44,630 nucleotides of DNA from Gammaproteobacteria bacterium (GCA_013817465.1 JACDCP010000001.1:1-44630); one strand, 5' to 3'; counted from the first letter of the stretch, positions 1,183 through 40,588 are shown. Program-made: numbers and translations. Notes: generated from the sequence alone by a model not told the origin.

Positions 1183-2166
1183 TCACAGACCGATGCGCAG
1201 CCGCAGGTACATCTTGAGGCGAGCGAGCTGTTCGATCTGGCTTGGATAATTCGTGGCCATCGCCGCGATCTTGCGTGGCGGATGCTCGAGATAGATGCAG
1301 GCCAGGGCTTCAAGCCGTGACAAACGCGCGCTGGGGCAGGCTCGCTCGTATCCGTATGCCTCGAGATCCTCGCCCGCCACAGCTTCGAATATCCGGAGCT
1401 CGCGCCGGGATAACATCTGCCGCCATCTGCCTGTATTCTCCGTGAGCACACCTTTGACGAGATTGGCTCGATTACGGATATCCGCCGAGTAGTCGGCGTA
1501 CGACGGATCGGGACTGAGCATCTGCGGGAAGTATTCCACGGCGAGGAAATCACAAAGCTGCCGCACGACCGCTTCCGTGTCGCGCAGCAGGTCTTCGTAG
1601 CGTAGCTGGAAGAACTGCGCCCCGAGCCTCGTCTCGAGCCGCCGCGCAACCGCGAGATGTTGGGACCATCGCCGGGCGGCCGGGTGCACGTGCTTCGGCC
1701 CGAATCGCGCTTTCATCCACGAAACGGCGACGTCGCGTCCGTCACGAACGATATGCACGAAGCGCGCCGAAGGGAAACCTTCGAGGATATAGTCGGCGAA
1801 GAAAAGGTGGTGTGGCGTCTTCTCTCCCCAGCGCGACTTCCCCCGCGCCTCGGTCCACGCTTCCATGATTCCGGCAACGATCCCGTTCAGGTCGAAATGG
1901 CCGTTCGCTTCGATGCGCGCCAGGGCCTCTCGTCCGTCGACGGCCGGGATCCACCTCCTCAGTCGCGGGGTCGCCAGTATGTCGCGCAGAAGTCGTTCGC
2001 GGTTCCGGGGCCTGCGAAGATCGCCGTAGTGGGTAATCCAGGGCAGAAACGTATCGTAGAAGTGCGACTCTCGCGGCACTGCTATTGCGGGATGCCGGCC
2101 GATGATCCGGCTCATCAGCGACGTGCCGGAACGCGGCGCGCCAATGATGATGACCGGTGGCTCCAT
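1183..2166 (-). CDS. sulfotransferase family protein
   Basis: 327-aa ORF. It has a P-loop-like 5'-phosphosulfate-binding motif 'IIIGAPRSGTSLM' at the N-terminus and 'VHIVRDGRDVAVS' about 130 aa later. GAGG lies just upstream of the ATG at 2166. It is a close paralogue of the next gene. Confidence 0.85.
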   Translation of the reverse strand: MEPPVIIIGAPRSGTSLMSRIIGRHPAIAVPRESHFYDTFLPWITHYGDLRRPRNRERLLRDILATPRLRRWIPAVDGREALARIEANGHFDLNGIVAGIMEAWTEARGKSRWGEKTPHHLFFADYILEGFPSARFVHIVRDGRDVAVSWMKARFGPKHVHPAARRWSQHLAVARRLETRLGAQFFQLRYEDLLRDTEAVVRQLCDFLAVEYFPQMLSPDPSYADYSADIRNRANLVKGVLTENTGRWRQMLSRRELRIFEAVAGEDLEAYGYERACPSARLSRLEALACIYLEHPPRKIAAMATNYPSQIEQLARLKMYLRLRIGL

Positions 2167-2183
2167 CCTCGCTGACGTGGCGC

Positions 2184-3218
2184 TCAGAAACCGGCTCGCA
2201 GCCGCACATAGATCAGGGAGAGAACCGCCAGGTGCATCTGGCTTTTTCTGTTCTTCACCAGAGGCACGATTTTGCGCAGCGGATGCTCGATATATTTGTA
2301 GAACCTGCGTTGCGCAGCCGAAAGCCGCGGATTCCCGCAGACCCGATCATAGCCGTGTGCCTCCAGCTCCTTCCACGCCACTGCTTCGAATATCCTGAGC
2401 TCGCGCGGCGACAAGGCCCGCCGCCATTTTTCGGCGTTGCCGGCCATGATCGGCTTTGCCAGATTCGCATCGTTGCGCGCGTCGGTGGGATATCCCTCCT
2501 GCGAGCGATAAAACTTGAGCATGCCCGCGCTGTATTCCTCACCCAGAAAATCGCAGATGCGTCGCACCGTCATTTCGGCGTCGCGCAGCAGATCTTCGTA
2601 ACGCAGCTCGAAATACTGCGCCGGGCCGAGCTTCTCTTCGAGCTCGTGCGCTGCCTCGAGAACCTCCAGCCACCGTAAGGCCGCGGAATATACATGCTTC
2701 GGACCGAACACTGCCTTTTTCCAGGAGACGGCCACATCGCGTCCATCGCGCACGATGTGGATGAACTGCGCCTGCGGAAAATCCTCCAGGATCCGGTCCG
2801 CGAGGAAGAGATGCGCCGGCGTCTTTTCGCCCCAGCGCCGTTTTCCCTGCCCTCTGCACCAGGCCTCCATGATCCCGGCGACAATCCCCCCGAAATCGAA
2901 CCGGCCGTTGGCCTCGATCCGCTCCAGCGCGGCCTGCCTGTCGACACGGGGCAGCCAGTTTCGCAGCACGTCGGTTTGCAGAATGTCGCGTACCAGCCGT
3001 TCGCGGTTCCTGCGCGCGCCCAGATCGCCATAGTGGCGGAGCCAGGGCACGAAGGTCTTGTAGAAATACGATTCGTAGGGGACGGCAATCCCCGGGTGAT
3101 TGCCGATGATCTGGCTGATGAGCGACGTGCCCGAGCGGGGCGTGCCGACGAAAAAGATCGGCGATTCCATTCCCTTGACGGTTGATTTGTCGAAGGCCCC
3201 TTCCATCACGCTCCGCAT
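2184..3218 (-). CDS. sulfotransferase family protein (tandem paralogue)
   Basis: 344-aa ORF with 'FFVGTPRSGTSLI' and 'IHIVRDGRDVAVS', collinear with 1183..2166 over its whole length. The start is uncertain: ATG at 3218, ATG at 3206 (preceded by GGAG-N4) or ATG at 3170 (which aligns with the paralogue's start). Confidence 0.85.
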   Translation of the reverse strand: MRSVMEGAFDKSTVKGMESPIFFVGTPRSGTSLISQIIGNHPGIAVPYESYFYKTFVPWLRHYGDLGARRNRERLVRDILQTDVLRNWLPRVDRQAALERIEANGRFDFGGIVAGIMEAWCRGQGKRRWGEKTPAHLFLADRILEDFPQAQFIHIVRDGRDVAVSWKKAVFGPKHVYSAALRWLEVLEAAHELEEKLGPAQYFELRYEDLLRDAEMTVRRICDFLGEEYSAGMLKFYRSQEGYPTDARNDANLAKPIMAGNAEKWRRALSPRELRIFEAVAWKELEAHGYDRVCGNPRLSAAQRRFYKYIEHPLRKIVPLVKNRKSQMHLAVLSLIYVRLRAGF

Positions 3219-3317: not shown

Positions 3318-4346
3318 ATGCGCATGAACAGTTTCTGGGACGGCCGCACTGCCCTCGTCACCGGCGCCGGCGGATTCACGGGCCGGCACCTCGCCACTGA
3401 GCTGAAGCGACGCGGAGCAAAAGTCAGGGCTTTCATCCGGGAAGGCTCGTCATCGGATTTCGAATCGGCGATCGAGATCTTTTCCGGCGATCTGCTCAGC
3501 GACGATGACTGTCATCGCGCCATGCAGGGAATGGATACGATTTTTCACGTTGCGGCTGTCTTCCGTCGCGTTTCGACGACAACGGAAGAGCTGCGCCGGA
3601 TTCATGTGAACGCCACGGAGCACTTGTTGCGGGCGGCCAAAGAAGCCGGCGCGCGGCGTTTCGTGCACACCAGCACGATCGGCGTGCACGGCGGGCTCAA
3701 GGTCGATCGAGCCGATGAGCAGGGTGAATTCAGCCCGAGTGACGATTACCAACTCACCAAGCTCGAGGGCGAGCAACTCGTCAGCCGGCTGGCGCCCGAG
3801 CTCGGCGTGCCGTACAGCATCATTCGTCCCTGCGCGATCTACGGTCCCGGCGATACGCGCTTCCTCAAATTCATCAAGCCGATCAGCCGCGGCATGTTCG
3901 TCATGGTCGGTCCCGGCGAGGTGCACGGTCACTTCGTCTATATCGACGATCTGGTGGAGGGCTTCCTGCTGGCCGGCGAGAAGGAAGAGGCCTGCGGCGA
4001 GACCTTCATCATCGGCGGCATGCGCAGCCACAGCCTGAACGAGTTTGCGCGCACGGTGGCGGACATCTGCGACGTGCGGCGTTCCGGCATCAGGGTGCCG
4101 GTCTGGCCCGTATACGCGGCCAGTGTCGTGTGCGAGAAAATCTGCAAGCTCATCGGCGTGGAGCCGCCGCTGCATCCGCGCCGCGTGGCCTTCTTCACCA
4201 AGCACCGCTCCTTCTCGATCGCCAAGGCCCGCAGGCTGCTCGGCTACGAGCCGAAGACGGATCTCGAGACCGGGATGAGACGCCTGATCCTCTGGTTCCG
4301 GCAGCAGGGCTACATGCACACGATCCTGGTGCTGGTCGGGATGTAG
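3318..4346 (+). CDS. NAD-dependent epimerase/dehydratase (extended SDR)
   Basis: 342-aa ORF with the Rossmann motif 'ALVTGAGGFTGRHL' and the catalytic YxxxK 'YQLTK'. Its stop codon TAG at 4344-4346 lies 2 nt before the palindromic element. Confidence 0.85.
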   Translation: MRMNSFWDGRTALVTGAGGFTGRHLATELKRRGAKVRAFIREGSSSDFESAIEIFSGDLLSDDDCHRAMQGMDTIFHVAAVFRRVSTTTEELRRIHVNATEHLLRAAKEAGARRFVHTSTIGVHGGLKVDRADEQGEFSPSDDYQLTKLEGEQLVSRLAPELGVPYSIIRPCAIYGPGDTRFLKFIKPISRGMFVMVGPGEVHGHFVYIDDLVEGFLLAGEKEEACGETFIIGGMRSHSLNEFARTVADICDVRRSGIRVPVWPVYAASVVCEKICKLIGVEPPLHPRRVAFFTKHRSFSIAKARRLLGYEPKTDLETGMRRLILWFRQQGYMHTILVLVGM

Positions 4347-4348
4347 TC

Positions 4349-4401
4349 AAAATGGGGACATTCCTGATTTTCGTTTCGAAAATCAGGAATGTCCCCATTT
4401 T
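4349..4401. repeat. palindromic REP/BIME-like element, copy 1 (perfect 25-bp stem, 3-nt loop)
   Basis: AAAATGGGGACATTCCTGATTTTCG (4349-4373) is the exact reverse complement of 4377-4401. It lies between convergent genes, and the methyltransferase stop codon (4383-4385) is inside the right arm. It could act as a bidirectional terminator hairpin. Confidence 0.9.
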
Positions 4402-5120
4402 CGGTCAGCGCGCAGGATGACCGGGGAGCCGAGCAGATGCGTCAGGCCGACTGCCCGTGAGGCCGTGTCGGCCGCGCGCACGACAGCGTTTGCGTCGAGC
4501 GCGCGATGGACGAACATCGGCAGAAAGAACTGCTTGCTGGCTCGCGCCGGCGCGAAGCCGTGCTCCGCCAGAACGCCCGCCAGTTCCCCGGCCGTGAAGC
4601 TCGTGTACGTGCGGGTATTCCCTTCGATGCGTTTCTTGAGCGCGAACAGCAGCGGCGTCAGCGCGTTCAGGCTCCACTTGCTCGGGTAGTCCACGACCAG
4701 CGACCGCGACGACACGCGAGCGAATTCGGCCAGCAGCCGTGGCCAGCGCTCGATGTGCGACAGCAGCCGCACCGATATGACCAGATCGAAGGCCTGATTC
4801 GGGTACGGTAAAGCGAGCAGGTTTCCCACGTCCTGACGGACATTTACGTGTGGGTGGATGCCTCTGAAGCGCTCGTAGCATCGCTCGTCGCTGCTCAATA
4901 TCGTCACGTCGTAGTTGCGCTTCAGCAGCAGCTCGGTGAGCTGGCCATGGCCGCCTCCGACGTCGAGCACCGACCTGCCGTCGAAATCGCTCAGCACGTC
5001 TTCGATGGCGGCCGTCTGTGTGTCGAGGAAGTACTGCCCCGCGCGCCCCTGGAAGCGGGAGGCATAGTCAGCCGAGGCGGTCTCGATATCCGGGGTCTCC
5101 GGCGTTTCTTCTTCTTGCAT
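4383..5120 (-). CDS. class I SAM-dependent methyltransferase
   Basis: 245-aa ORF with SAM-binding motif I 'VLDVGGGHGQLT' and a downstream acidic loop 'VTILSSDE'. The last codons (RKWGHS-stop) are encoded by the palindromic element. Confidence 0.8.
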   Translation of the reverse strand: MQEEETPETPDIETASADYASRFQGRAGQYFLDTQTAAIEDVLSDFDGRSVLDVGGGHGQLTELLLKRNYDVTILSSDERCYERFRGIHPHVNVRQDVGNLLALPYPNQAFDLVISVRLLSHIERWPRLLAEFARVSSRSLVVDYPSKWSLNALTPLLFALKKRIEGNTRTYTSFTAGELAGVLAEHGFAPARASKQFFLPMFVHRALDANAVVRAADTASRAVGLTHLLGSPVILRADRKWGHS

Positions 5121-5140
5121 GGACGGCTCGCCTCAGGAGC

Positions 5141-5226
5141 AAATGGGGACATTCCTGATTTTCGTCTCGAAAGGAGAAAATGGGGACATTCCTGATTTCC
5201 GAAAAAATCAGGAATGTCCCCATTTT
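5141..5226. repeat. palindromic REP/BIME-like element, copy 2 (two direct left arms plus one right arm)
   Basis: Left-arm sequence AAATGGGGACATTCCTGATTTTCG lies at 5141-5164. A second left arm at 5177-5198 pairs with the right arm at 5205-5226 (22 bp). The last nucleotide overlaps the ACP stop codon (5226-5228). Confidence 0.9.
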
Positions 5227-5477
5227 CAGGCTGTCTCGGATTGCTCGGAAGTGTGCCGATCGACGACTTCCCTGATCTTGCCGATGCTTTCCAGGGACTG
5301 AATCTCCCGCATGGAGAGCTTGATGCGGAACGCCTGCTCGAGCGCCGTGATGAGCCGGAAATGATTGAGCGAATCCCAGCGGTCGACGGTCTCTGGTGTG
5401 AGATCGTCGGACAGGCTGGATTCGTCCACCTCGAAAACTTCCGCTATGATCTGCTCAACAGTCCTATGCATCTTCAC
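5226..5477 (-). CDS. acyl/peptidyl carrier protein
   Basis: 83-aa acidic ORF with the phosphopantetheine attachment motif 'DRWDSLNHFRLITALE' (DSL). AAGGAA lies upstream of the ATG. Confidence 0.8.
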   Translation of the reverse strand: MKMHRTVEQIIAEVFEVDESSLSDDLTPETVDRWDSLNHFRLITALEQAFRIKLSMREIQSLESIGKIREVVDRHTSEQSETA

Positions 5478-5608
5478 GTTCCTTCGCCGTCGCGAAGCAC
5501 ATCCTGGGCCGATGAAGCCTGCCTCGCAAATTATGCAGAAACCGCCGTCTGCCGTGATGTTAAGTCTGTCACAAGACCGCGCGGCCTTCTACATGAACGG
5601 CGATTAGC

Positions 5609-6562
5609 ATGAGCCGCTTGATAGTGATCGGCAACGGGACCCTGGCCATGGATTGCCTGGCTATGCTGCACGATCGGCCAGCCGCCGAAATCGTGCTGGT
5701 CGTGTACGATCAGCGGGAGCGTTCCATCGGCGGCGGCGTCGCGGCTTGGTGCAAAAACCACAGCGTGGCCGTGCTGCCGGTAGAGAAAAACATCAATGCG
5801 CCGGAGGTCCTGCAAGGGATCACGGCGCTCGAACCCGACCTGATCTTCAATATCAACAGCTTCTTCATCTTCCGCGACGAGCTGCTCGCGGTCGCGAAAG
5901 GCGGCATGGTGAACTTTCACAATGCCCCGCTGCCGAGATTCCGCGGCGTGCACTCACCGTCCTGGGCCATCATCACTGGCGCGACCGACTACGGCGTCAC
6001 CTGGCACTTCATCGACAAAGGAATCGACACGGGTGACATCATCGCCCAGCGGCCGGTCGAAATCAGCGACGACGAAACCGCGCTCAGCCTGACGATCAAG
6101 TGCATGCTGGCGGGCAAGGCGCTGTTCGCAGAATTCATCGACGATTTGCTCGCGGGGGACTTCACGCGCACGCCCCAGTCCGGCCCCGGCTCGTATTACT
6201 CGCTGCGGGATACGCCGAATGGCGGCTATATCGACTTCAGCGACGACTGCAAGATCATCGACCGGGTCGTGCGCGGCCTCGATTTCGGCCCGGCGACCAA
6301 TACCTTCGTGCACGCGAAAACGCGTTTCCGCGAGCGCGATTTCATCGTCAGCCGCGTAAGCTGTAGACCGCAGGCAGCAACGAAACCGCCGGGCACTGCG
6401 CTCAGCACCGACGCCGGGCGGCTGGAGGTTGCGGCAGGTGACGGGATCGTGTCGATAGAAGACGTGCGGTCGGCCGACGGTGAGCCGCTCACGGTATCCG
6501 GGCTTATCGACAAACTGGGCATTCGCCCGAACGATCGCCTGGAGAACGTACGCGTGAGCTGA
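5609..6562 (+). CDS. formyltransferase-family protein (Fmt / ArnA N-terminal domain-like)
   Basis: 317-aa ORF. 'NFHNAPLPRFRGVHSPSWAIITG' matches the N-x-H-x-S-LLP-x-x-RG formyltransferase core, and 'IDKGIDTGDIIAQ' supplies the catalytic Asp region. A C-terminal beta-barrel-like extension follows. Confidence 0.8.
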   Translation: MSRLIVIGNGTLAMDCLAMLHDRPAAEIVLVVYDQRERSIGGGVAAWCKNHSVAVLPVEKNINAPEVLQGITALEPDLIFNINSFFIFRDELLAVAKGGMVNFHNAPLPRFRGVHSPSWAIITGATDYGVTWHFIDKGIDTGDIIAQRPVEISDDETALSLTIKCMLAGKALFAEFIDDLLAGDFTRTPQSGPGSYYSLRDTPNGGYIDFSDDCKIIDRVVRGLDFGPATNTFVHAKTRFRERDFIVSRVSCRPQAATKPPGTALSTDAGRLEVAAGDGIVSIEDVRSADGEPLTVSGLIDKLGIRPNDRLENVRVS

Positions 6563-6638
6563 AATCCCCTGCCGCAAACCGGCCACGAGGAAAACTCCTC
6601 GCTACCGAACGTCATGCAGATAACCGCGCCGATGAGCG

Positions 6639-6724
6639 GGAAAATGGGGACATTCCTGATTTTCCGTGAGATGTTCTTCGGCTAAGCAAGGGCATCCGGA
6701 AAATCAGGAATGTCCCCATTTTCC
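6639..6724. repeat. palindromic REP/BIME-like element, copy 3 (perfect 27-bp arms, 32-nt spacer)
   Basis: GGAAAATGGGGACATTCCTGATTTTCC at 6639-6665 is the exact reverse complement of 6698-6724. It lies between the convergent formyltransferase and ligase genes. Confidence 0.9.
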
Positions 6725-6753
6725 TCTCGCGCGGTGGCCTGCCACAACAAGCA

Positions 6754-8286
6754 TCAACGCTGCGCGATTTCGGCAAGGGCCTGGCGGTCGATCTTGCCGT
6801 TCAGATTCAGCGGCATGTGGTCGATGCTTTGAATGACCCGCGGCTGCATGTACGCCGGCAGCTTGCGTTGCAGATATTCGGCGAGCGCGTCGCCGACGTC
6901 CTCGTAATCCTCGATGAAAAGGTGCAGCCCGCTCGTGCCCTCTTTGTTGGGGACGGCAATGACGGCAGCCTGAGCGCGACCCGCGAACTCCCGCGCGTGA
7001 TGCTCGATCTCACCGAGCTCGACGCGATGGCCGTCGATCTTGACCTGGAAATCCGCCCGCCCGCAGTAGATGAATTTATTCGCTGCGTTGACGAAGCAGA
7101 TATCCCCGGTGCGATAAGCCTTGCCTCCCGTAACCCCTTCGATATCGACGAAGGCCGCAGCGGTCTTTTCCGGATCGCGCCAGTAATGATCGGTGACCTG
7201 GGGCCCTTGCAGGCACAGTTCTCCCATCTCTCCCTGCGCCACCGGCACATTGCCCTCATCGACGACGTACGCGCTCACGTCCGGCATCGGCCGGCCGATA
7301 GCCACGATGCCGTTGACGGCTTCCGCCCGCGCCGATTCGGCTTCCCAGTCGTAGACCAGGCAGTAGATCGTCGCTTCAGTGGGCCCGTAAACGTTCTGGA
7401 TTCGCGCATTCGGCACGCATTTCGACCAGCCCTCGACCAGCCCCTGCGGCAAGGCTTCGCCGCAGAACTGGCTGTGGCGTAAAGCGGGCAACTCGATCTC
7501 GTCGAAGAAGCGTTCGAGGTACGCGAGCGCCGAAGGCACCATGAGGGCCACCGTCAGCTCATGCTCCTGCAGCAGCGTGACGATGTTCATCCAGGCGATG
7601 CCCTTCTCCGGGAGCACATAGCAGCAGGCGCCGATGCACAGAGGCGCGAACAGCGATACCACCGACAGGTCGAACGTCAGCTCGAACATCTGCAGGAACC
7701 GATCCTCCTTCCGGTAATCGCCGATTTCCGGATCGAGAACGACGTCCATGAAGCTGTTGAGATTGCGGTGGTAGATTGGCACGCCTTTCGGCCGCCCGGT
7801 GCTGCCGGAAGTAAAAAACAGGTAGGCCAGGGAATCGGTGTGTATGTCCGCTAGATCCAGGCTGCTGCTGGCGCGCGAATCGGAGTCCAGCCGCCGCGTG
7901 CGCATGACTTCGATATCCACAGGCAGGGCATGCTCGATGTGCCCGGCACTCTCCTGTCGACCGCTGGCCAGCACCACCTCGAGCCCGGCATCCTCGATGA
8001 TCCGGGCATTGCGGTCCTGCGGATGCTTGTTGTTGAGCGGCACATAGGCCGAGCCGTTCGCCAGGATTGCAAGGATGGAGGCATAGGTGGCGGCGTCATC
8101 CCCGGTCAGCACGCCGATGCGCCGCTGATCGGCAAACCCCGACTCCACGAGGCCGTTGCGTATGCCCTGCGCGAGCGCCGAAAGCTCGCGATACGTGTAA
8201 TGTCGCCCATCCGCATACAGCGCATGGCGCTCGGGGAAAAATTTCGCCACTTCGGCGAACTGGTGAATGACCGTCCTGATCGGCAT
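6754..8286 (-). CDS. DltA-like amino-acid adenylating enzyme (AMP-binding, carrier-protein ligase)
   Basis: The listed 971-aa ORF is trimmed to the ATG at 8286 ('MPIRTVIHQFAEV'). Motifs present are 'AYVPLN', 'LAYLFFTSGSTGRPKGV', 'TFDLSVVSLF', 'NVYGPTEATI', 'YRTGD' and 'GRADFQVKIDGHRVELGEIE'. The start overlaps the upstream stop codon (ATGA at 8284-8288). Confidence 0.85.
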   Translation of the reverse strand: MPIRTVIHQFAEVAKFFPERHALYADGRHYTYRELSALAQGIRNGLVESGFADQRRIGVLTGDDAATYASILAILANGSAYVPLNNKHPQDRNARIIEDAGLEVVLASGRQESAGHIEHALPVDIEVMRTRRLDSDSRASSSLDLADIHTDSLAYLFFTSGSTGRPKGVPIYHRNLNSFMDVVLDPEIGDYRKEDRFLQMFELTFDLSVVSLFAPLCIGACCYVLPEKGIAWMNIVTLLQEHELTVALMVPSALAYLERFFDEIELPALRHSQFCGEALPQGLVEGWSKCVPNARIQNVYGPTEATIYCLVYDWEAESARAEAVNGIVAIGRPMPDVSAYVVDEGNVPVAQGEMGELCLQGPQVTDHYWRDPEKTAAAFVDIEGVTGGKAYRTGDICFVNAANKFIYCGRADFQVKIDGHRVELGEIEHHAREFAGRAQAAVIAVPNKEGTSGLHLFIEDYEDVGDALAEYLQRKLPAYMQPRVIQSIDHMPLNLNGKIDRQALAEIAQR

Positions 8287-12090: not shown

Positions 12091-12186
12091 CGGTCGAAGC
12101 GCGCGGCGGCGGGCTTCGATGTGCCTCGCAGCATGGGCCTATGGTATCTTTCGCAGGGTTCATGTTTCACGCGAAGGGAGTCCGCT

Positions 12187-12777: not shown

Positions 12778-12788
12778 GGGCAAGCAAG

Positions 12789-14102: not shown

Positions 14103-14233
14103 TCAGCCGCACGAAGGCGGGAACTGTGAATGGCGTCACGGCGGCGCGCCCCGGTAGAATCCACGATACACAAGATGAAGCAGACGACAGAACACTGCGG
14201 TGCGCCTGAGACTCCGGAACGAGATTGACCGCC

Positions 14234-27004: not shown

Positions 27005-27017
27005 CGTTCAATTAAAG

Positions 27018-30167: not shown

Positions 30168-30537
30168 GATTTTGACCCCCCCGAGTCTAATGTAAGGCCG
30201 AAGGCCGGTTCGTATGGCGGCGACGGCAGTTCTCTCAATGAGTTGAGAACACGCTGGACCTTGCGCGTTATGGTAGATTATCGAAGCGGATTTGCGTTTT
30301 CCGACCATTTCAATGCAGTCCCTGTAGCCTGAGGGAACCGCAAAGCACCGTCGAACGACAAATAACCCAGTGCTGCAACTCCGCTATCGTAGGCTGCGAA
30401 CCCGTAGACCGGAAGCTTTGCGTCCCTGCTTTTCAACAGGTTTGCCCTCGGGCGGAAAATTTACGTAATGTCGGACTTAAAGTCAACCGAAAGCCTGGAA
30501 GTGTGTGAACTGCGTCACTATTTGGCGACAAATCGGT

Positions 30538-31734: not shown

Positions 31735-32651
31735 GTAATCGAACTGGAATAACCCAGGCTGCCCAGCATCGGCTCCATGAGCGCGCTAAGCTTCTCAATA
31801 CGCACGACGCCAAAATCAGTCCGATACTTGTCGTTCATGTTCACGAGCGTATCGCGTCGCTCCAGATGCCTGTGGGCGAGTAGTGCATCCTCAAGGTCGC
31901 AGAACGAGTACATCTTGCGAAGCGCGACGTGGGGTGACTCGACAAAATCTTCATATCGGATCTCTTGGTAACCGACGTTCTCAAGTGTTCCGCTTTCCAG
32001 TCGCGCAATTTCAATTACCCGCTTCCACTGCAGCGCCGCCAGGACGCCTGGATCTTGCTGACTTTCCCACCACTTTTGCAGATCTGCATCCGACAGGCCA
32101 CCCCTCCAAAACGGCTTGCTAAGTCCGCCCTTTTCGCGCCAGAAAGCGACGTGAAGCAGCGAGTGAACCGCGGCTCGACCGTCCCTAATGATGTGCACAA
32201 ATTTCGCGTCGGGGAAAATGCTGCTCAGAAACGCCATGCGCGACGGACCTGTAATCTTTGCGGCAAAACGGGCACGCCCCTGCCATGCTAGCAATTTGCC
32301 TACTGCCCTATGTACGCGATGGACGGTTGACTTGTCGGCAGTCTGGTCCCGCAAATAACTGCGGGAGAAGTCCTGCCCGGTGTAAATGTCCCAGAAGCTA
32401 TACGCCTCACTAGGTTGCGGCAGAAAACGGTTGCCGAATACAGTGGGCCCGTGCTGCCCCTTCTTGCCGGTCAGGCTTACGAATGAATTGTCGAGTATAC
32501 GGCGCACCACATTTATCCCGGGATGTGTAGGAAATCTTTCCGTGTACACAGACGGCCAGCCCAGCGTTCTATGTTGGCAGAAGGCTTCGAATGCCACTGT
32601 CGTTCCGCTGCGCGGAAATCCAATGAAGAAAATTGGCTTCAGTATCTGCAT
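31731..32651 (-). CDS. sulfotransferase family protein
   Basis: 306-aa ORF with 'IFFIGFPRSGTTVAFEAF' and 'VHIIRDGRAAVHS'. Confidence 0.85.
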   Translation of the reverse strand: MQILKPIFFIGFPRSGTTVAFEAFCQHRTLGWPSVYTERFPTHPGINVVRRILDNSFVSLTGKKGQHGPTVFGNRFLPQPSEAYSFWDIYTGQDFSRSYLRDQTADKSTVHRVHRAVGKLLAWQGRARFAAKITGPSRMAFLSSIFPDAKFVHIIRDGRAAVHSLLHVAFWREKGGLSKPFWRGGLSDADLQKWWESQQDPGVLAALQWKRVIEIARLESGTLENVGYQEIRYEDFVESPHVALRKMYSFCDLEDALLAHRHLERRDTLVNMNDKYRTDFGVVRIEKLSALMEPMLGSLGYSSSIT

Positions 32652-32899
32652 GTGTATTCACAAAGAGGCCGACTCCTAACTGACAAAAGCTGCCGGAGCG
32701 GCACACGTTAACATTCTCCGCAACCGGAAACCTGAAGCTTGGTCACATCCGCGCATTGCCCAGACGACCATAATCCTGCGCTGGTGGCTTTCAAGTTAGC
32801 GGTCGTATAGACCTGTTGGTACCATATCAAAGCACGTCCCAGACGTCTCCAAAGGCCGGTGGAGCGCAAACGTTAGCTATCTGCACCAGGGTGTTCGGA

Positions 32900-34195
32900 A
32901 TGACTGATTCAGCGACAACAAACCGGCTACAGGCAAAGAGCATGCCTTATGCCAAGGCGAAGCATACAGAGCATCTGAAGATTTGCTATCTCACCACCGA
33001 ATATCCGAAGGTGAGTCATACATTCATTCGCCGGGAGATACTGGAGCTGGAACGACGAGGCCATGAAGTGTTGCGTGTCGCAATTCGAAACGCCGGAGGC
33101 GCCATCGCCGACGATGCTGACCGGCGGGAAGCGGAACGCACCATCCATTGCCTTTCCCTTTCGAAACGGAAATTTATTATTTCCATTCTACGAGTCATGT
33201 TAACGCGAGCGGGCCGGTGGCTGTCGGCCTTGCGAATGACGCTAACTATGAGCCGCGCCAGCGAACGGGGTTTGCTGCGCCATCTTGCATATCTCGCCGA
33301 GGCTTCTGTGCTGCTGCATATATTAGCAAAACATGGTATCTCACACACACACGTGCATTTTGGTACTAACGCCGCGGCCGTCGCAAGGCTCATCGACTGT
33401 CTCGGGGGACCCTCCTACAGCATGACGATACACGGGCCTGGCGAATTCGATGCGCCGTTGGGATTTTCCTTAAGCGAGAAGGTTGAAGAAGCCGCATTTG
33501 TTGTGGCGATCAGCAATTTTTGTTACTCCCAGTTATGCCGCTGGGTGTCCCCGGAGCACTGGCAGAAAATTCATGTTGTGCGTTGTTCGGTCGATGGGGG
33601 GTTCTTCGAGTCGGAGACGTCCGTGAATGGATCCTCCCGGTTGCTGCTGAGTATCGGCCGACTCACGGCTCAAAAGGGACAGCTTTTGCTGCTCGATGCA
33701 ATGAGGCAGTTGGTCGCCGCCGGCGATGATGTCCGACTGGTACTTGCCGGTGATGGCAAATTGCGTCCTATGATCGAAGAACGCATTGTCACTTTTGGCC
33801 TGCAGCGTCACGTGACGGTTACCGGCTGGGTGGACGAAGCCACGGTGCGTATGCACTTGCAAGAAGCCCGCGTGCTCGTGCAGCCAAGCTTCGCCGAGGG
33901 TCTTCCTGTGGTAATTATGGAAGCGCTGGCTATGGGTCGCCCAGTGATCAGCACTTATGTCGCAGGGATTCCGGAGCTCGTCCGTCCCGGCGAGAACGGA
34001 TGGTTGGTGACCGCAGGGAACGTAGACGAGCTCGTGAGCGCCATTCGCGAAGCCCTCGATGCGCCTGCAGCGCAGCTGACAAGCATGGGTCGCGCGGGAC
34101 GGGAACGCGTCCGGGCGCGACATCACGTCACTACGGAAGTCGAGACGCTGGAGACGCTTCTACGTGCTGCTGCTTCCGGTGTTGCCAACTCGTGA
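32900..34195 (+). CDS. glycosyltransferase family 4 (WcaL-like)
   Basis: It has 'LKICYLTTEYPKVSHTFIRREILELERRGHEV', and the C-terminal half has 'SIGRLTAQKGQLLLLDAM' and 'LVQPSFAEGLPVVIMEALAMGRPVISTYVAGIPELV' (EX7E). The start is uncertain: TTG at 32816, ATG at 32900 or ATG at 32942. Confidence 0.8.
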   Translation: MTDSATTNRLQAKSMPYAKAKHTEHLKICYLTTEYPKVSHTFIRREILELERRGHEVLRVAIRNAGGAIADDADRREAERTIHCLSLSKRKFIISILRVMLTRAGRWLSALRMTLTMSRASERGLLRHLAYLAEASVLLHILAKHGISHTHVHFGTNAAAVARLIDCLGGPSYSMTIHGPGEFDAPLGFSLSEKVEEAAFVVAISNFCYSQLCRWVSPEHWQKIHVVRCSVDGGFFESETSVNGSSRLLLSIGRLTAQKGQLLLLDAMRQLVAAGDDVRLVLAGDGKLRPMIEERIVTFGLQRHVTVTGWVDEATVRMHLQEARVLVQPSFAEGLPVVIMEALAMGRPVISTYVAGIPELVRPGENGWLVTAGNVDELVSAIREALDAPAAQLTSMGRAGRERVRARHHVTTEVETLETLLRAAASGVANS

Positions 34196-34419: not shown

Positions 34420-35406
34420 TCACTTGCTGCGAATGATAACCTTTAAGCGCGCGAGAAACAGCGACCACGTCATTCGTTTCTGCACCGTGAATTTGTTCTT
34501 TATCTGCCTTGCCAGGACAGTCCAAGTATCGTGCGTTGACCACCAAAGCCGATTGGCGAACCCGGGATTGACGTCGCTATCGGGGCGGCAAGTAGCAAAT
34601 CCCAGGTTCGCGAGGCACATCCCGCCGATCATCTCGAGAGATTGCAGTCGCGAGTCGGTAAAATAGCCGGTATTCCGGTTTACGTTTTTTGTTATTTCTT
34701 TGGACTCTTGCCCGATATTCAGCGGTCGAGGCCGGGTCGATGACAAAACCCTTTCGTCGAATGCCACACCGATGCTGGCGCAGACGCGCCGCATGTGGAG
34801 CTCCGGATCATTCGTGACGTCCTCGTATCGCACTTCGACATAACGATCGGGGACGCGTCGGCCCTGACGCCGACCCTCTGCAACGACATGTTTCCAGCGG
34901 AACATGGTGCCGCAGGGATGCCTCCCCCAGCGTCTGTGATCCGAAGCTGCACAGTCGCGGCCGTCCCGCAGCATGTGTATGAAAACCGATCCCGGGAACG
35001 CTTTGCCCAGCGTGGCAATGTGCAAGGCATAGATTGGCGTCTTTTCGCACCAGCGACTCTTTCCTTCGTGGCGCGCAAACTCATGAATGATCCGATCGAA
35101 CACTCCACTCGCATTCCGCCGGGTCGCGGCCCAATCCGGAGGCAAATCCACCGGTCGCCCTTTATTGACTCTACAGAACGGGTATTCGCTACGCATATCA
35201 TTCCACAATTTCGCAAAATTGGCGTCGAGGCGCAGATCTCCGTACTTGTGCTCGTTTGCGAGGTAATGCGGGAGTATATATGTCTCGATTCTGAAGCCGA
35301 ACAATTCCGGATGATGTCCAAGATGGTCGAGCATCATCGTCGTTCCGGAGCCGTTCATTCCCACGATGAATACAGGACCGTGAAACGTTTGCCGTGCGCT
35401 GTCCAT
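34420..35406 (-). CDS. sulfotransferase family protein
   Basis: 328-aa ORF with 'VFIVGMNGSGTTMM' and 'FIHMLRDGRDCAAS'. It is a paralogue of 19493..20524. Confidence 0.85.
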   Translation of the reverse strand: MDSARQTFHGPVFIVGMNGSGTTMMLDHLGHHPELFGFRIETYILPHYLANEHKYGDLRLDANFAKLWNDMRSEYPFCRVNKGRPVDLPPDWAATRRNASGVFDRIIHEFARHEGKSRWCEKTPIYALHIATLGKAFPGSVFIHMLRDGRDCAASDHRRWGRHPCGTMFRWKHVVAEGRRQGRRVPDRYVEVRYEDVTNDPELHMRRVCASIGVAFDERVLSSTRPRPLNIGQESKEITKNVNRNTGYFTDSRLQSLEMIGGMCLANLGFATCRPDSDVNPGFANRLWWSTHDTWTVLARQIKNKFTVQKRMTWSLFLARLKVIIRSK

Positions 35407-35419: not shown

Positions 35420-37132
35420 TCAGAGATTTGATGGGCCGGCGGCGCCGTCTACGTTCGAATCGATCCTGTAGACGTGAATGAGGGGCCCCGGCCTGTCCCT
35501 TGGATTCGGCGGAAACGCGCGCACCAAAGAAACGTCTGGATCCGCCTCTAGTTCATCAAGGAACGACAAACCGACGTGGGCAATCTTTCGGGATTCCACA
35601 AAGTATTCTGGCCTTATCACCAGGTACTCGATCCCCATATCTTTGTAATGGTCGAGGTCGTGTGCGCGGAGCTCTGACGGCGATACTAGCTCCAGATCAT
35701 AGGTGCTGCCGCTCATCGCCTGAAGCCTATACTTCAAATACTTTGCCTTGCCGGGCTCCCGCGTCTCGTAGAATTCTATATGGTCGCGCATGTTTTCCAT
35801 AGTATCCTGCAGTGGAACCGTGAGCCTGGTCGGCTCGATTTTCAAACCCTCGATAAATACTGTGGCGCCCTGCGGAATATTCTCGCCGATCCACTCCTTC
35901 GCAATCGTCCTGGTGTCTGTGTGAGACAACAAGTAGTTGTTCACAACCGTCTTGTACGCCGGCATGAAGGCGAGAGCTGCGACGACTACGATCGCGACAG
36001 TCTGCTTCGCCGCACCCGCACCAGGCCACGCCGCCCACAAAAGGCGGCCTGCCATCAGGGCAAGTACGACGATCACCGGCAACATGTAGCGGGGAAAATA
36101 CAGATGCGGGTGTGAAGAGGTGGCGAATACAAGATAGAAAACGCAGGCAAATGCCAAGAGCATTACATCTGCCGGAGTGCGCTTCCAGGCGCCGTACAGG
36201 ATTCCGGCGAAAGAAACGAGCAGCAACGGCCAACCCATCGAATCACCGAGCACGGCGATGTAATAGATGAAGAAATTAGGCGGGGTCCCCTGTGCTGCCT
36301 CCGCATACTCGAGCTCCACCGCCCCTTCATCCGCGCCCCCCGCATCGCCGAAATACGCTGGCATCGGCGGATCCAGAAACAGCCCTGGGTTGGTGATCCC
36401 CAGCACCACGACGAAAATTGCGACAGCCCACCAGAGATGTGCCGTCAGGAAGAACTGGCGCGGTCCTCCCCCCTTTCGCCGAACATAGTAGTAATGCGCA
36501 ATGAGCAGCGGCAGGAGGAGCAGAATTGCCGGAAGCTTGGTGGTCGTCGCCAACGCTGCAAACACCGCTGCCCACTTGTAATCCCGGCCACTTCCGCCCG
36601 TGGCCATGTTGGCTGCAAAGAGCAGCGCAGCGGTTGCGAGGCAGGTCATCGGAATATCGACTGTGATGTAATGCGAGTGCTCCGCGCTCAAAAAATCCAC
36701 TGTCAGAATGGTCCCCGCCAGCAGGCCCGCGCCGGTGGAATAAGCGCGGGCACCGAGGCGGTACAAGAGGAATACGTTCAGGGTTCCGATCGCCGCGGTT
36801 GTCGCGCGACCTATCAAATAAAAGCTGGATGGGTCGCCGACAAAATACCTCGCGAAATCCTGTGCCGACTCGATGACTCCGGCGATCTTCAATGCGACGA
36901 ACAGAACCCCGTACTCCAAAAACAGCACATAAAAATAGCCGCCCTTGCCTGTTCTTTCTAAATTGAAGCTGCCGCTGCCCAGTTCCAGCGCGCGAAACAC
37001 CTCATGGTACTCGTCTGCTCTGTAGCTGAATGGCAGCCCGAACCAGATGCCCCAAAGACGCAGGCCGAATGCTGCGGCGAGAATCAGAGCCAGATAAATC
37101 CAAATCCGGTTAAGATTCCTTATACTTTCCAT
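35420..37132 (-). CDS. GT-C fold membrane glycosyltransferase (GT39/ArnT/PMT_2-like)
   Basis: 570-aa ORF with about 10 or more predicted transmembrane helices. The first loop has 'LPFSYRADEYHEVFRAL', a DE motif as in ArnT/PMT enzymes. The C-terminal ~170 aa are soluble. Family membership is inferred from architecture. Confidence 0.65.
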   Translation of the reverse strand: MESIRNLNRIWIYLALILAAAFGLRLWGIWFGLPFSYRADEYHEVFRALELGSGSFNLERTGKGGYFYVLFLEYGVLFVALKIAGVIESAQDFARYFVGDPSSFYLIGRATTAAIGTLNVFLLYRLGARAYSTGAGLLAGTILTVDFLSAEHSHYITVDIPMTCLATAALLFAANMATGGSGRDYKWAAVFAALATTTKLPAILLLLPLLIAHYYYVRRKGGGPRQFFLTAHLWWAVAIFVVVLGITNPGLFLDPPMPAYFGDAGGADEGAVELEYAEAAQGTPPNFFIYYIAVLGDSMGWPLLLVSFAGILYGAWKRTPADVMLLAFACVFYLVFATSSHPHLYFPRYMLPVIVVLALMAGRLLWAAWPGAGAAKQTVAIVVVAALAFMPAYKTVVNNYLLSHTDTRTIAKEWIGENIPQGATVFIEGLKIEPTRLTVPLQDTMENMRDHIEFYETREPGKAKYLKYRLQAMSGSTYDLELVSPSELRAHDLDHYKDMGIEYLVIRPEYFVESRKIAHVGLSFLDELEADPDVSLVRAFPPNPRDRPGPLIHVYRIDSNVDGAAGPSNL

Positions 37133-37144
37133 AACCAGTTCCGA

Positions 37145-38008
37145 CTACCTGCCAATGTTCACTGCCAGCAGCTCCGCGTTGGCGCCAAGCGCCCTCCACT
37201 GCCGTGACATGCTTTTATCGAGTCTCACGGTCACCGCGCCGCACAGCTTCTCCGCTTCCGATGACAAGCGGCTGTCGTTTCGTCCGATTGATTGCGCGTG
37301 AATGTGTTTGATCATCTCCTCAAAAAAGCGGCACCCGAGGAAGTCGCAAACTATTCTCATCACGCGTTCAGGATCTCGGACCAGCATTTCGTACTTGAGC
37401 AGCAGAACATCCGGATTCGTATCCAGTCGTTGATCAAAGAAAAGCTGATTGCGAAGATACCAGAACACACCTGCAGCGGACTGCGCGCTCATCTGCGCGT
37501 AGTCCAGTTTGCGCAGAACCGACAACGTCTCCGCAGTGATACCCCTGGCTTCCCAGCGGTCGGTAGGGCCCTTCTCCATGAGCTCCCTGAGGAAGCGAAG
37601 ATTGGTGTCGCCGAATTTCGAAACCGCGGAGTTCGCCCTGTCCTCGACGCGACGATACATCCAGATGGCCTTGCTGCCGGCATCCGTGGCCAGAAGCGCG
37701 TCGGCCCGATGTGAGTCCGTGAGGGGCTTGAAGGCGATAAAGGGTCGCTTGCTTGCGGCGATCAGGCTCCGCGTCTCATCCAGGCTTTTCAGTACGCTGT
37801 TCTTGAAAGCGACCGACATTTCGCCGTAGACGTCGAACTCCGGCGAATTTTCGAAGCAGCTTGCCAACATCGTCGTGCCGGACCGCTGTGCGCCCAGGAT
37901 AAAGATACCGCGGTGTTGCGAGGCTGGACCATGACGGCGCAACCAGATCCATTTACGGATCGTCCGCCGCATAGCATCCATGCGGCGCGTCATCTTTTCG
38001 ACGATCAT
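37145..38008 (-). CDS. sulfotransferase family protein
   Basis: 287-aa ORF with 'IFILGAQRSGTTMLASCF' and 'IWMYRRVEDRANSAVSKF'. Confidence 0.8.
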   Translation of the reverse strand: MIVEKMTRRMDAMRRTIRKWIWLRRHGPASQHRGIFILGAQRSGTTMLASCFENSPEFDVYGEMSVAFKNSVLKSLDETRSLIAASKRPFIAFKPLTDSHRADALLATDAGSKAIWMYRRVEDRANSAVSKFGDTNLRFLRELMEKGPTDRWEARGITAETLSVLRKLDYAQMSAQSAAGVFWYLRNQLFFDQRLDTNPDVLLLKYEMLVRDPERVMRIVCDFLGCRFFEEMIKHIHAQSIGRNDSRLSSEAEKLCGAVTVRLDKSMSRQWRALGANAELLAVNIGR

Positions 38009-38253: not shown

Positions 38254-39555
38254 TCAAGCCTCGTTCTCAGGGTGCGGTCCGTGATGCCGTGTGATCAGGA
38301 GCAGTGAAACTCCGATGATAACCACGTTGCCGATAACCGTCGCAATGACGAATGCCCCCAGGGTCCACTCCGGGCTCGCTTCCAGACCAAAAGCGATGCC
38401 GAACGTACTCATGCGAAACACTGTGGTTGCGAGCTGCAGATGAAGCCAAACCCTCTGCTTCCTCAGTACAATGAACACTGGATTCGAAGGCGCGGTAACC
38501 CAGATCATGAAAAGCCAAGGCGAGATAATCTCGAGGTAGCGGCCGGCTTCCGACCAGCGCTCGCCGAGCAGCCAGGTTGCCAATGGTTGTCCGGAAAACC
38601 AGAGCACGGCAAGTGGGCCGGCACCCAACAGAACGAGCCCGCCCGTGGATAACAGAAACGCCGACCTGAGGCTCCTGCCGCGATGACCGATCTCGGCGGC
38701 CTTCTGCAGGAACACTCTTCGTACGGAATTGGCCACGACGACAATGGGAACGTGAGACACGCGCGTGGCCATGGCGTAGAAGCCGACGACTGCCGGCGAA
38801 AAAAGAACACCGAACAAAATAACAGGAAGCTGTTGAGTAGCCGCGGTCAGAAGCGCCGCAGGCGCGTTCAACCTCGGAAAATCCGAATACTTCGTGGCGA
38901 TCCGCCGAATTGCCGTCCATCCAACAGGCCGAAAGGTCGCCCGAAACCCTTCGCTGCTTGCGCTCTTCTGCACGGCCAACCGGAAGACCTGGCCGAACAT
39001 GTGTCCCACCACGAGCCCGAACACCGAGCTGCCGGCTAAGGCCCCAAATCCTATACGGGCCCCGCCCGTCACTGCCGTACCGACAACCATCGACGTCGCA
39101 ACAACCTTGAACATTTTTCTGCGGGCTAACCAGTTTTCCTGAATCGTGACCATCGTCAGGAGCAGGACACTCAGCGGCAACAGCCATAACCACATGCCCA
39201 GGGATTCCAGAACCGGGACTGTCAGATCGCTGAGCTCGTAACCGCCGATAATCAGCAGCAGAACGGCGCATACGAAGATCAGCAGACGATAAGCGAAGGC
39301 CATCAACAACAGCGCCTCTGCTTCCTGGTCCGGCAACACGAGGGCGTTTTCATACCGAAGAGCGCCCACATTCGATACGACCACCCCAAGAGACAGGAAC
39401 AATGCTGCGATGCCAAAATCGCTGGGAGAAAACAGACGCGCAATGATCGGCATGGTGACGAGCGCAATGCCAGCTGCAATGCTCTTGCCCGACATCATTG
39501 TCGCGACGTTGCCGAGGAACGCCTTGTGCCTGGTAAGAAAATCTGCAAATCGCAT
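38254..39555 (-). CDS. oligosaccharide flippase (Wzx / Polysacc_synt, MOP superfamily)
   Basis: 433-aa polytopic membrane ORF. Its N-terminus 'LGNVATMMSGKSIAAGIALVTMPIIARLFSPSDFG' is typical of polysaccharide biosynthesis flippases. Confidence 0.8.
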   Translation of the reverse strand: MRFADFLTRHKAFLGNVATMMSGKSIAAGIALVTMPIIARLFSPSDFGIAALFLSLGVVVSNVGALRYENALVLPDQEAEALLLMAFAYRLLIFVCAVLLLIIGGYELSDLTVPVLESLGMWLWLLPLSVLLLTMVTIQENWLARRKMFKVVATSMVVGTAVTGGARIGFGALAGSSVFGLVVGHMFGQVFRLAVQKSASSEGFRATFRPVGWTAIRRIATKYSDFPRLNAPAALLTAATQQLPVILFGVLFSPAVVGFYAMATRVSHVPIVVVANSVRRVFLQKAAEIGHRGRSLRSAFLLSTGGLVLLGAGPLAVLWFSGQPLATWLLGERWSEAGRYLEIISPWLFMIWVTAPSNPVFIVLRKQRVWLHLQLATTVFRMSTFGIAFGLEASPEWTLGAFVIATVIGNVVIIGVSLLLITRHHGPHPENEA

Positions 39556-39802
39556 GATGCTATTCTGGCTGAAGTGAGAATTCGCTCAACTGCTTCAATC
39601 GGCCCAGCAGCGACCGCGCGGGATTGTGGCAACTTCCCGGCCCGCGGTCCAGCAAGCCCGTCTGACAGGAAGTGGCCGCTCGTAGACGCCGTGATCGTGT
39701 ATACCTTAATATACCCGCCGCGAGGTCCCCGAGAGTCGCGTGCTCGTCCGGCTTGCGCCACGGCTCATGAGTTTCAATGCTGCCGGGCTCAGTGCAGAAT
39801 TC

Positions 39803-40588
39803 ATGGTCATCAGCGACAAGCACAAGTACGTATTCGTAGAGCTACCGCGGACTGGATCCAGCGCAATCAGCCGTGAGCTGCGTGAGCATTACGACGGTCG
39901 CAACATTCTGCACAAGCATGCCACATATGACGAGTTCCTCAGTTCGGCTACAGATAGAGAATCAAGCTATTTCGTTTTTGGTGGCCTGCGCAATCCTGTC
40001 GACGATGCGGTCAGCCTCTACTTCAAGCTGGTGACCGACCATCAGCGCAAGTTTTCACGTCTGCAGCATGCGGGATGGTTTACGCGATTGGCCTATCGAT
40101 TCCGATCGAGACAATTCCACTTTGCGCGGGCGGACAAGAACGGTTTTTCGCGCTTTTTTCTGAAGTTCTATCGATTTCCCTATGACAACTGGAGCTCGCT
40201 CGCGCATGCGAGGTTTGACCGCGTGCTCCGCTTTGAGACTCTGGTGGAGGATTTCGACGCTGCGCTTGCGCAACTGGGCATTGAACCGGTAAGGCCACTG
40301 CCGGTTGGAAACAAGACCGGGGGCAGGAGCATGGCTTACTGGGAGTACTACAACACCAAAGCTATCGCACGAGCGCGGTGGGTCTTCGGGGTATATATGG
40401 AAAAGTGGGGTTACGGGTTTCCAATATCGTGGAAACTTGGCGAAGCCGTCCCAGGCGCCGTGAACAGATTGGTCTTCAGATTCCTGAATGTTTTTCGCAG
40501 ATTTTACTGGCGCCGTTTGCGTCCCGTGGTATATGCGAAGATTCAGCGTGACCAGCAAAGACGGCGAGCTCTGGAGTTTGTCGAATAA
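39803..40588 (+). CDS. sulfotransferase family protein (Sulfotransfer_2-like)
   Basis: Motifs 'YVFVELPRTGSSAISREL' and 'FGGLRNPVDDAVSLYFK' are present. The start is uncertain: GTG at 39740, ATG at 39767 or ATG at 39803. Confidence 0.7.
   Translation: MVISDKHKYVFVELPRTGSSAISRELREHYDGRNILHKHATYDEFLSSATDRESSYFVFGGLRNPVDDAVSLYFKLVTDHQRKFSRLQHAGWFTRLAYRFRSRQFHFARADKNGFSRFFLKFYRFPYDNWSSLAHARFDRVLRFETLVEDFDAALAQLGIEPVRPLPVGNKTGGRSMAYWEYYNTKAIARARWVFGVYMEKWGYGFPISWKLGEAVPGAVNRLVFRFLNVFRRFYWRRLRPVVYAKIQRDQQRRRALEFVE

Follow-up and report, generated by a model that had tools for sequence, protein, structure and literature searches.

We analyze a 44,630-bp stretch of gammaproteobacterial DNA (hereafter, the window), which is the entire contig JACDCP010000001.1 of a metagenome-assembled genome (MAG), GCA_013817465.1, and in which ten open reading frames (ORFs) belong to the sulfotransferase superfamily. 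The ten genes, designated ST1 to ST10, make up 21% of the contig. As an earlier note made from the sequence alone had described, they are interleaved with glycosyltransferases in a polysaccharide export locus; the locus is of Wzx type, and the genes are often translationally coupled to the glycosyltransferases. Our preferred reading, which we hold to be probable, is that the window is one Wzx/Wzy-type exopolysaccharide (EPS) or capsule locus whose repeat unit carries unusually many sulfate esters. In the literature we searched, ten sulfotransferases that outnumber the glycosyltransferases are far outside the described cases. Bacterial Wzx/Wzy EPS machinery and sulfotransferases are both known and the mechanism is conventional; what is notable is the number and diversity of the sulfotransferases and the pointer they give to a broader class that is still unstudied.

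The ST10 and ST5 proteins correspond to the NCBI entries H0W33_00175 and H0W33_00110, both labeled "MAG: Gammaproteobacteria bacterium". Among GTDB species representatives, the named sequences nearest to the ST10 gene come from a Woeseiaceae MAG (62% identity) and from a Steroidobacteraceae MAG, and we take the host to be an uncultured, Woeseiaceae/Steroidobacteraceae-like soil gammaproteobacterium.

Identity and diversity of the ten sulfotransferases

All ten ORFs proposed in the earlier note are present at the coordinates it gave, with the starts of ST5 (23963) and ST10 (~39803) as it had guessed, and all are intact with both sulfotransferase motifs kept. ST1 (1183-2166, minus strand; PF13469, 127 bits) and its tandem paralog ST2 (2184-3218, minus strand; PF13469, 135 bits), separated by a 17-bp gap, share the motifs PRSGTS and RDGRDVAVS, while ST7 (31731-32651, minus strand; PF13469, 65 bits) carries PRSGTT and RDGRAAVHS. 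ST4 (19493-20524, minus strand) and ST8 (34420-35406, minus strand), each matching PF13469 with 110 bits, have the variant P-loops MNGSGTS and MNGSGTT (motif pairs NGSGTS / RDGREVACS and NGSGTT / RDGRDCAAS). Both PF13469 and PF00685 are matched by ST6 (25169-26098, plus strand; 48.7 and 38.8 bits; SKCAST and RNQVDLIAS), which has a low G+C of 0.48, and by ST9 (37145-38008, minus strand; 51 and 43 bits; QRSGTT and RRVEDRANS). ST3 (18599-19438, plus strand; EKAAGTT and RDPVERYLS) is of the Gal-3-O-sulfotransferase / Sulfotransfer_2 type, with 41.7 bits to PF06990 and 22.2 bits to PF03567. The remaining two are weaker profile cases: ST5 (23963-25111, plus strand; 382 aa; GRSGTT and RHPGAAVES), a divergent PF13469-type protein, scores 24.9 bits against a cutoff of 27, and ST10 (~39803-40588, plus strand; PRTGSS and RNPVDDAVS), a Sulfotransfer_2-like protein, has no Pfam match of its own.

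Eight of the ten exceed a Pfam sulfotransferase gathering threshold (seven for PF13469 at 49-135 bits, and ST3 for PF06990), and a competing family was reported for none. When all stop-to-stop ORFs of 120 aa or longer in the window were scanned iteratively with hidden Markov models (HMMs), exactly the same ten sulfotransferases emerged and no further, hidden one. N-terminal motifs resembling the 5'-phosphosulfate-binding loop are seen in all ten translations, as the note had described. The downstream R...S motif also occurs in all ten, as the 3'-phosphate-binding pattern R-x(7)-S that is invariant in the ST5 and ST10 families, although the spacing previously given (100-130 aa) is only roughly right: from ST1 to ST10 the distances are 130, 130, 76, 130, 141, 101, 143, 129, 78 and 48 aa, a range of 48-143 aa. 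NCBIfam offers a usable family for none of the ten; the sole model touched by ST1, ST2 and ST4 is NoeE, at a negligible 19-23 bits against a cutoff of 500. Hydropathy analysis predicts transmembrane (TM) segments in none of them, which fits cytoplasmic enzymes that use 3'-phosphoadenosine-5'-phosphosulfate (PAPS).

A direct search of PDB sequences with ST5 and ST10 gave nothing at E <= 10, so their assignment needed homolog alignments and structure prediction. Most of the 400-odd ST5 homologs carry PF13469 and some are named sulfotransferase, and across a 32-sequence alignment GSGRSGTTW, E85 and R204-H-P...S212 are invariant. In Foldseek, the AlphaFold2 model of ST5 (predicted local distance difference test, pLDDT, 86) matches TPST2 (best E 4.8e-5), tick TPST, CurM-ST and TPST1 at E 5e-5 to 8e-4, with 13 PDB sulfotransferase matches at E <= 1e-3; among the 50 matches listed, 49 are sulfotransferase-fold proteins. 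Homologs of ST10 are 45-66% identical, 20 of 21 aligned members match PF03567, and T17, G18, K38, H39, R63, P65, D67 and S71 are invariant in the family. All 50 matches listed for the ST10 model (pLDDT 88.7) are sulfotransferases, but they are weak (best E 7e-3, TM-score ~0.4). This weakness, together with the missing Pfam match of ST10, is what speaks for taking the ORFs as P-loop proteins of some other function (kinase or NTPase-like); set against the eight uncontested Pfam assignments, the PF03567 matches of the ST10 family and the Foldseek results for both proteins, that idea is essentially refuted. From their sequences, superfamily membership of all ten ORFs is confirmed, with sulfate transfer itself as their predicted function.

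The set is diverse, and the distinction of at least three sequence types is upheld. ST1 and ST2 are 59% identical and ST4 and ST8 39%; these four form one subgroup at 28-31% identity, with ST7 and ST9 as distant members, and BLASTP finds no detectable similarity of ST3, ST5, ST6 or ST10 to other sulfotransferases in the window. Since mutual similarity among the ten is low, the set is not a recent amplification; by sequence comparison it brings together at least five or six lineages, drawn from three Pfam families. As a separate observation, the C-terminal 30 residues of ST1, ST2, ST4, ST8 and ST10 are basic and hydrophobic (6-10 Lys/Arg and 0-3 Asp/Glu), and such tails could be amphipathic membrane anchors that place the enzymes beside lipid-linked intermediates.

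The solved structures closest to ST1 and ST4 are the sulfotransferase domains of CurM and of olefin synthase (OLS) and the enzymes TPST1/2, all of which use PAPS. ST5 shares these structural neighbors, none of them a carbohydrate sulfotransferase, and some of the PF13469 proteins might accordingly sulfate other acceptors: tyrosines of secreted proteins or peptides, as TPST- or RaxST-like enzymes, or lipid- or polyketide-like intermediates bound to an acyl carrier protein (ACP), as CurM/OLS-like ones, given that the locus holds two ACP/adenylation modules. However, the identity of the window's sulfotransferases to TPST and CurM (~13-17%) reflects a shared fold and PDB bias, the genes are interleaved and coupled with glycosyltransferases, and neither a precursor peptide nor a polyketide synthase is evident in the window. 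NodH, a carbohydrate sulfotransferase, also belongs to PF13469 (PMC11625862). We therefore consider non-carbohydrate acceptors very unlikely.

Assembly, export and decoration genes

The Wza/Wzc-type export genes, glycosyltransferases and flippase named in the earlier note are all confirmed, except that two distinct genes encode the Wzz and kinase parts of Wzc. The Wza-like outer-membrane polysaccharide export (OPX) protein, of XrtA type, lies at 12121-12777 (plus strand; TIGR03027, 143 bits, cutoff 180). On the same strand are a putative outer-membrane beta-barrel partner of ~430 aa (12789, or 12861, to 14102; weak OMP_b-brl match, E 2.8e-4; a 74% ortholog adjoins Poly_export in the sister locus described below), a polysaccharide co-polymerase (PCP)/Wzz chain-length determinant (14225-15925; PF02706; TIGR03007, 262 bits, cutoff 279) and a BY-type tyrosine autokinase (15947-16804; TIGR03018, 160 bits, cutoff 231; TIGR01007, 96 bits). 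A 690-aa ORF at 12030-14102 was rejected as a gene, being a high-GC artefact that masks the OPX gene in another frame and joins upstream sequence to the barrel gene. The Wzx/MOP flippase is encoded at 38254-39555 (minus strand; PF13440, 72 bits).

The glycosyltransferases comprise six cytoplasmic enzymes (GT2/GT4) and an ArnC-like/GT-C pair. Among the GT4 genes, GT4 a (10031-11197, minus strand) was found with Pfam and has an 83% ortholog in the sister locus, and domain matches identify GT4 b (22453-23649, minus strand), GT4 c (30538-31734, minus strand) and the EpsE-like GT4 d (32816-34195, plus strand), as well as GT2 b (20487-21494, minus strand) and an NAD-dependent sugar epimerase/dehydratase (21413-22456, minus strand). 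GT4 c and ST7 overlap by 4 bp, ST4 overlaps GT2 b, and ST8, the GT-C gene and ST9 are spaced by 12-13 bp; the 4-bp overlaps and 12-17-bp gaps between sulfotransferase and glycosyltransferase genes would support co-expression. The pair consists of an ArnC-like polyprenyl-phosphate glycosyltransferase of family GT2 (19-1005, minus strand; PF00535, 114 bits; NF007986, 180 bits, below cutoff), with two C-terminal TM segments, and a PMT_2/ArnT-like membrane glycosyltransferase of type GT-C (35420-37132, minus strand; PF13231), with at least eight TM segments and kept in all sister loci. Together they resemble a periplasmic side-branch glycosylation route via a lipid-phosphate sugar.

If the window is a single locus for a heavily sulfated polymer, the GT2 and GT4 enzymes would assemble a repeat unit of ~6-8 sugars on undecaprenyl phosphate, on the cytoplasmic face of the membrane, and the PAPS-dependent sulfotransferases would sulfate defined positions of the lipid-linked unit in the cytoplasm, where we place this step because PAPS exists only there. 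Wzx would then flip the sulfated unit and Wzy polymerize it, the PCP/kinase and OPX/barrel set would export the polymer, and the ArnC-like/GT-C pair and a Dlt-like ester-transfer module would decorate it in the periplasm. In this scheme we infer the acceptor, the order of the steps, the regiospecificity and the number of sulfates, and we observe the enzyme families, the hydropathy-based location, the gene coupling and the conservation. Its precedent, by analogy, would be the synechan cluster, whose two sulfotransferases and eight glycosyltransferases match the two sulfates per eight sugars of its polymer (PMC8205485). The suggestion that the product is glycosaminoglycan-like is not borne out, as genes of uronic-acid or hexosamine pathways (UDP-glucose dehydrogenase, hexosamine synthase, aminotransferase) and a glycosaminoglycan synthase are missing from the window, where only two generic epimerase/dehydratases of the short-chain dehydrogenase/reductase (SDR) type and an ArnA-N-like formyltransferase were found.

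The Dlt-like module (40722-44630) comprises an 850-aa MBOAT(DltB/AlgI-like)-SGNH fusion (40722-43274, plus strand), with at least eight TM segments in its N-terminal half and with homologs that are JGI-named DltB (MBOAT) and carry PF13472; an acyl/aminoacyl carrier protein of 81 aa, ACP2 (43310-43555, plus strand; profile match); and a DltA-like adenylation enzyme cut by the contig end (43559-44630, plus strand; TIGR01733, 243 bits). In three related loci the module is likewise found beside the ST10 ortholog and is followed by an acyl-CoA dehydrogenase; it points to esterification of the exported polymer with acyl or aminoacyl groups. The best NCBIfam match of ACP2, "ACP_for_OlsHI", was dropped, as it scores below cutoff and OlsH is a GH3-like planctomycete ornithine-lipid enzyme unrelated to the window genes.

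The assembly genes of the window also include two SDR epimerase/dehydratases, the formyltransferase, an S-adenosylmethionine (SAM) methyltransferase and a B12-type radical-SAM enzyme. The last, a B12-binding radical-SAM methyltransferase-like gene (16865-18346) between the kinase and ST3, has no sister-locus ortholog, and its product could C-methylate a sugar. The left arm of the window (3318-9977), a second decoration arm, holds an HpnA-like SDR, the SAM methyltransferase, an 83-aa ACP (5226-5477), the ArnA-N-like formyltransferase, a DltA-like adenylation enzyme (6754-8286) and a glycerol-3-phosphate-dehydrogenase-like flavoprotein (8286-9977), and has no counterpart in the fetched parts of the sister locus.

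Related loci and the coherence of the window

The sister locus, itself undescribed, lies on a 70.7-kb contig (CBFDHR010000037.1) of the soil-metagenome bin GCA_965610025.1, with at least seven sulfotransferases and no insertion sequence. In the window's direction, its genes are GT4, a 276-aa unknown, Poly_export, a 426-aa protein, Wzz, kinase, sulfotransferase, epimerase, GT4, ST5-like, GT2, GT4, a 597-aa protein, GT4, two sulfotransferases, PMT_2, sulfotransferase, flippase, ST10-like, an 843-aa protein, ACP, AMP-ligase, acyl-CoA dehydrogenase, Wzy_C, sulfotransferase and Bac_transf. The two loci share this gene order, with orthologs that include the GT4s, GT-C, Wzx, MBOAT-SGNH, the adenylation enzyme and the export set at 57-86% identity (74-84% for the export genes). 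Six sulfotransferases (ST4, 5, 7, 8, 9 and 10) have syntenic orthologs at 57-67% identity (66% for ST4, 57% for ST7, 63% for ST8 and 67% for ST9), a degree of conservation that would point to selection; this six-gene core appears to have been maintained across substantial divergence and to be ancestral to the lineage. In contrast, ST1/ST2, ST3, ST6, the radical-SAM gene and an IS66 element of the window are absent from the sister locus. The four sulfotransferases, by this comparison, look like later additions. Looser relatives, on a 4.7-Mb ENA contig and in a Woeseiaceae MAG, have a core of GT-C, Wzx, ST10 and ST5 with ~3 sulfotransferases.

The IS66-family insertion (26225-28973, plus strand; Pfam TnpB_IS66, LZ_Tnp_IS66 and DDE_Tnp_IS66) is not part of the pathway. 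It has terminal inverted repeats GTAAGCG... and a 7/8-bp target-site duplication, GATGATG (GATGATGT / GATGATGA); tnpB (orf2) is present, and tnpC is split into three pieces, so that the transposase is broken. The right inverted repeat and the stop codon of a lyase-like gene (28962-30308, minus strand) overlap, and ST6 lies 126 bp to the left of the element. We rejected a chimeric assembly, or two unrelated loci joined from GC-distinct halves, since both halves are matched in synteny by a single, uninterrupted sister locus and therefore represent one ancestral locus.

Several observations weigh against assigning the whole window to one heavily sulfated repeat unit. The G+C content drops across the contig from ~0.62 to ~0.55: it is ~0.61-0.67 up to ~23 kb, dips to 0.53 at 24-26 kb and is ~0.54-0.58 from 30 kb, and the IS66 element sits between the GC-distinct halves. 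Four of the ten sulfotransferases (ST1/ST2, ST3 and ST6) are specific to the window, without a sister ortholog. Profile scans find Wzy_C in no window ORF, and a priming phosphoglycosyltransferase (Bac_transf or WecA-type) is likewise missing from the window; in the sister locus, Wzy_C follows shortly beyond the position at which the window ends and a priming enzyme lies downstream, and by analogy both probably lie just off the window's right end. The PAPS-supply genes cysD, cysN and cysC and the PAP phosphatase gene cysQ are absent from this contig. In addition, the P-loops of ST4 and ST8, MNGSGT(S/T), have Gly at the position of the TPST Arg in PRSGTT, whereas ST1, 2, 3, 5, 6, 7, 9 and 10 have a basic residue (Arg or Lys) in the loop; this P-loop Arg or Lys is considered catalytic in TPST and in cytosolic sulfotransferases. 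Finally, all that goes beyond gene identity is inferred from a MAG contig.

Many of these points would also be expected of a mosaic locus, in which the ten sulfotransferases do not act jointly on one repeat unit and some of them, as accessory, redundant, alternative or inactive cassettes, make the surface glycan differ from strain to strain, or serve a second glycoconjugate made by the left-arm genes (the ArnC-like GT2, the formyltransferase, the ACP/adenylation genes and the HpnA-like SDR). The four sulfotransferases without a sister ortholog fit this view, as do the low G+C of ST6 beside an IS66 element with a target-site duplication, the origin of ST1/ST2 by a recent tandem duplication (59% identity), the difference in GC between the contig halves, the missing P-loop basic residue of ST4 and ST8, and a sulfotransferase number that ranges from 1 to 8 among related loci. 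However, both contig halves are syntenic with the single sister locus, all ten ORFs are intact with both motifs, and the window has only one flippase and one export set. The MNGSGT variant, moreover, is kept in the ST4/ST8 orthologs of four related loci (L002, L003, L005 and L006), so it is a stable sub-family trait and not decay, and the loop is probably functional in some altered way. On balance, we regard a mosaic as a serious but rather unlikely alternative to a single locus for one heavily sulfated repeat unit. What we do not find supported is the stronger claim that all ten enzymes act regiospecifically on one polymer, which is assumed by the multiply and regiospecifically sulfated product of the earlier note, given that four of them are lineage-specific additions, one beside the IS66 element.

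To place the window among other genomes, we surveyed 43 GTDB loci that hold an ST10-family gene, with up to 10 kb fetched on each side. Strict per-locus counts, based on domain coordinates, are lower bounds (in the window they merge ST1 and ST2, since the stop-to-stop ORFs overlap), and loose counts are upper bounds. The median was 3.5 and the maximum 8 non-overlapping sulfotransferase domains per ~20 kb. The maximum came from a Zixibacteria MAG with 8 sulfotransferases within 11 kb (DASRYM010000033.1; L016, 2821-13830), and strict counts of 5-6 or loose counts of 8-9 are reached in several MAGs of Limnocylindria and Chloroflexia. Thiocapsa marina 5811 holds an ST10-family gene and only 2 sulfotransferases. 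Loci from uncultured Zixibacteria/Chloroflexota (L016, L009, L014, L019, L024, L034 and L041), with 5-8 non-overlapping sulfotransferase domains in 9-17 kb, are denser than the window. A description of these dense loci was not found in the literature searched. On these counts, sulfotransferase-dense glycan loci are recurrent, though apparently undescribed, in uncultured lineages, with the window as a large example and not a singleton. The earlier remark that the architecture is not a described system thus stands for the literature searched, but the architecture itself recurs in the sister MAG and in Chloroflexota and Zixibacteria.

Significance and comparison with known systems

Published bacterial clusters hold 1-3 sulfotransferases (PMC8205485, PMC7356697, PMC11641403), in line with the note, which has only a few per locus in the best-described cases. 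The authors of the synechan study were aware of no further bacterial EPS cluster that contains sulfotransferases (PMC8205485). A single one is reported from a Pontiella cluster (PMC7356697), and a Vibrio capsule region has three together with cysNDC (PMC11641403). According to a 2024 review, sulfated polysaccharides are known from six bacterial genera (PMC11625862). Searches for literature on sulfotransferases with exosortase or with Woeseiaceae found nothing relevant.

The literature searched treats two sulfotransferases per bacterial EPS cluster as remarkable and counts a handful of sulfating genera. Against this background, we raise tentatively, and with more doubt than confidence, that the product could be a polysulfated heteropolysaccharide with approximately one sulfate or more per sugar, its charge density being comparable to that of heparin or fucoidan and without precedent among bacterial polymers; the locus may also be one visible example of a large undescribed class of sulfotransferase-dense glycan loci across uncultured soil and sediment phyla (Woeseiaceae, Steroidobacteraceae, Chloroflexota/Limnocylindria and Zixibacteria). 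If such a class exists, bacterial sulfated glycans are far commoner than the six genera reported. Heparin, chondroitin sulfate, fucoidan and carrageenan are valuable and still come from animals and algae, owing to the scarcity of bacterial producers and of polysaccharide sulfotransferases; ten divergent, intact sulfotransferases in a conserved locus, and relatives in several uncultured phyla with 5-8 in 10-20 kb, would amount to a toolbox of candidate regiospecific enzymes. The window and its relatives also suggest that sulfated matrix polymers may be an overlooked sulfur sink and may supply soils and sediments with polyanionic matrix.

Among known systems, the synechan cluster xss of Synechocystis sp. 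PCC 6803 resembles the window as a Wzx/Wzy-type EPS cluster with Wzx, PCP, many glycosyltransferases and embedded cytoplasmic sulfotransferases of PF13469/PF00685 type (PMC8205485). The proportions differ, with 2 sulfotransferases and 8 glycosyltransferases in xss versus 10 sulfotransferases, 6 cytoplasmic glycosyltransferases and the ArnC-like/GT-C pair in the window. The window, whose host is a gammaproteobacterium and not a cyanobacterium, lacks the XssQ/XssR/XssS regulators (no STAND regulator or two-component genes occur among its annotated ORFs) and has XrtA-like export genes and the Dlt-like MBOAT/ACP/adenylation module. The capsule clusters of Vibrio sp. KMM 8419 and Cobetia marina are likewise gammaproteobacterial surface-polysaccharide loci with sulfotransferases and with mobile elements nearby (PMC11641403, PMC11766843), but they have ~3 sulfotransferases over an 80-gene region, ABC-transporter export and in-cluster cysNDC, none of which applies to the window.

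The XrtA/PEP-CTERM systems offer the closest match for export, in that the window's OPX protein, chain-length determinant and kinase match TIGR03027, TIGR03007 and TIGR03018 best and in the same gene order, and for several of its GT4s the "stp" glycosyltransferase models of the XrtA system rank first or second. However, the three export scores fall below the curated cutoffs (143/180, 262/279 and 160/231), and exosortase XrtA, PEP-CTERM substrates, EpsI and FemAB-like proteins are all absent among the window ORFs. Finally, the rhizobial carbohydrate sulfotransferases NodH, NoeE, KpsS and LpsS, to which the window's set can be compared, are PAPS-dependent proteins of PF13469 type with an RxG P-loop, and they act on sugars. 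They are encoded as single genes for Nod factor, lipopolysaccharide or K-antigen, whereas the window holds a battery of ten.

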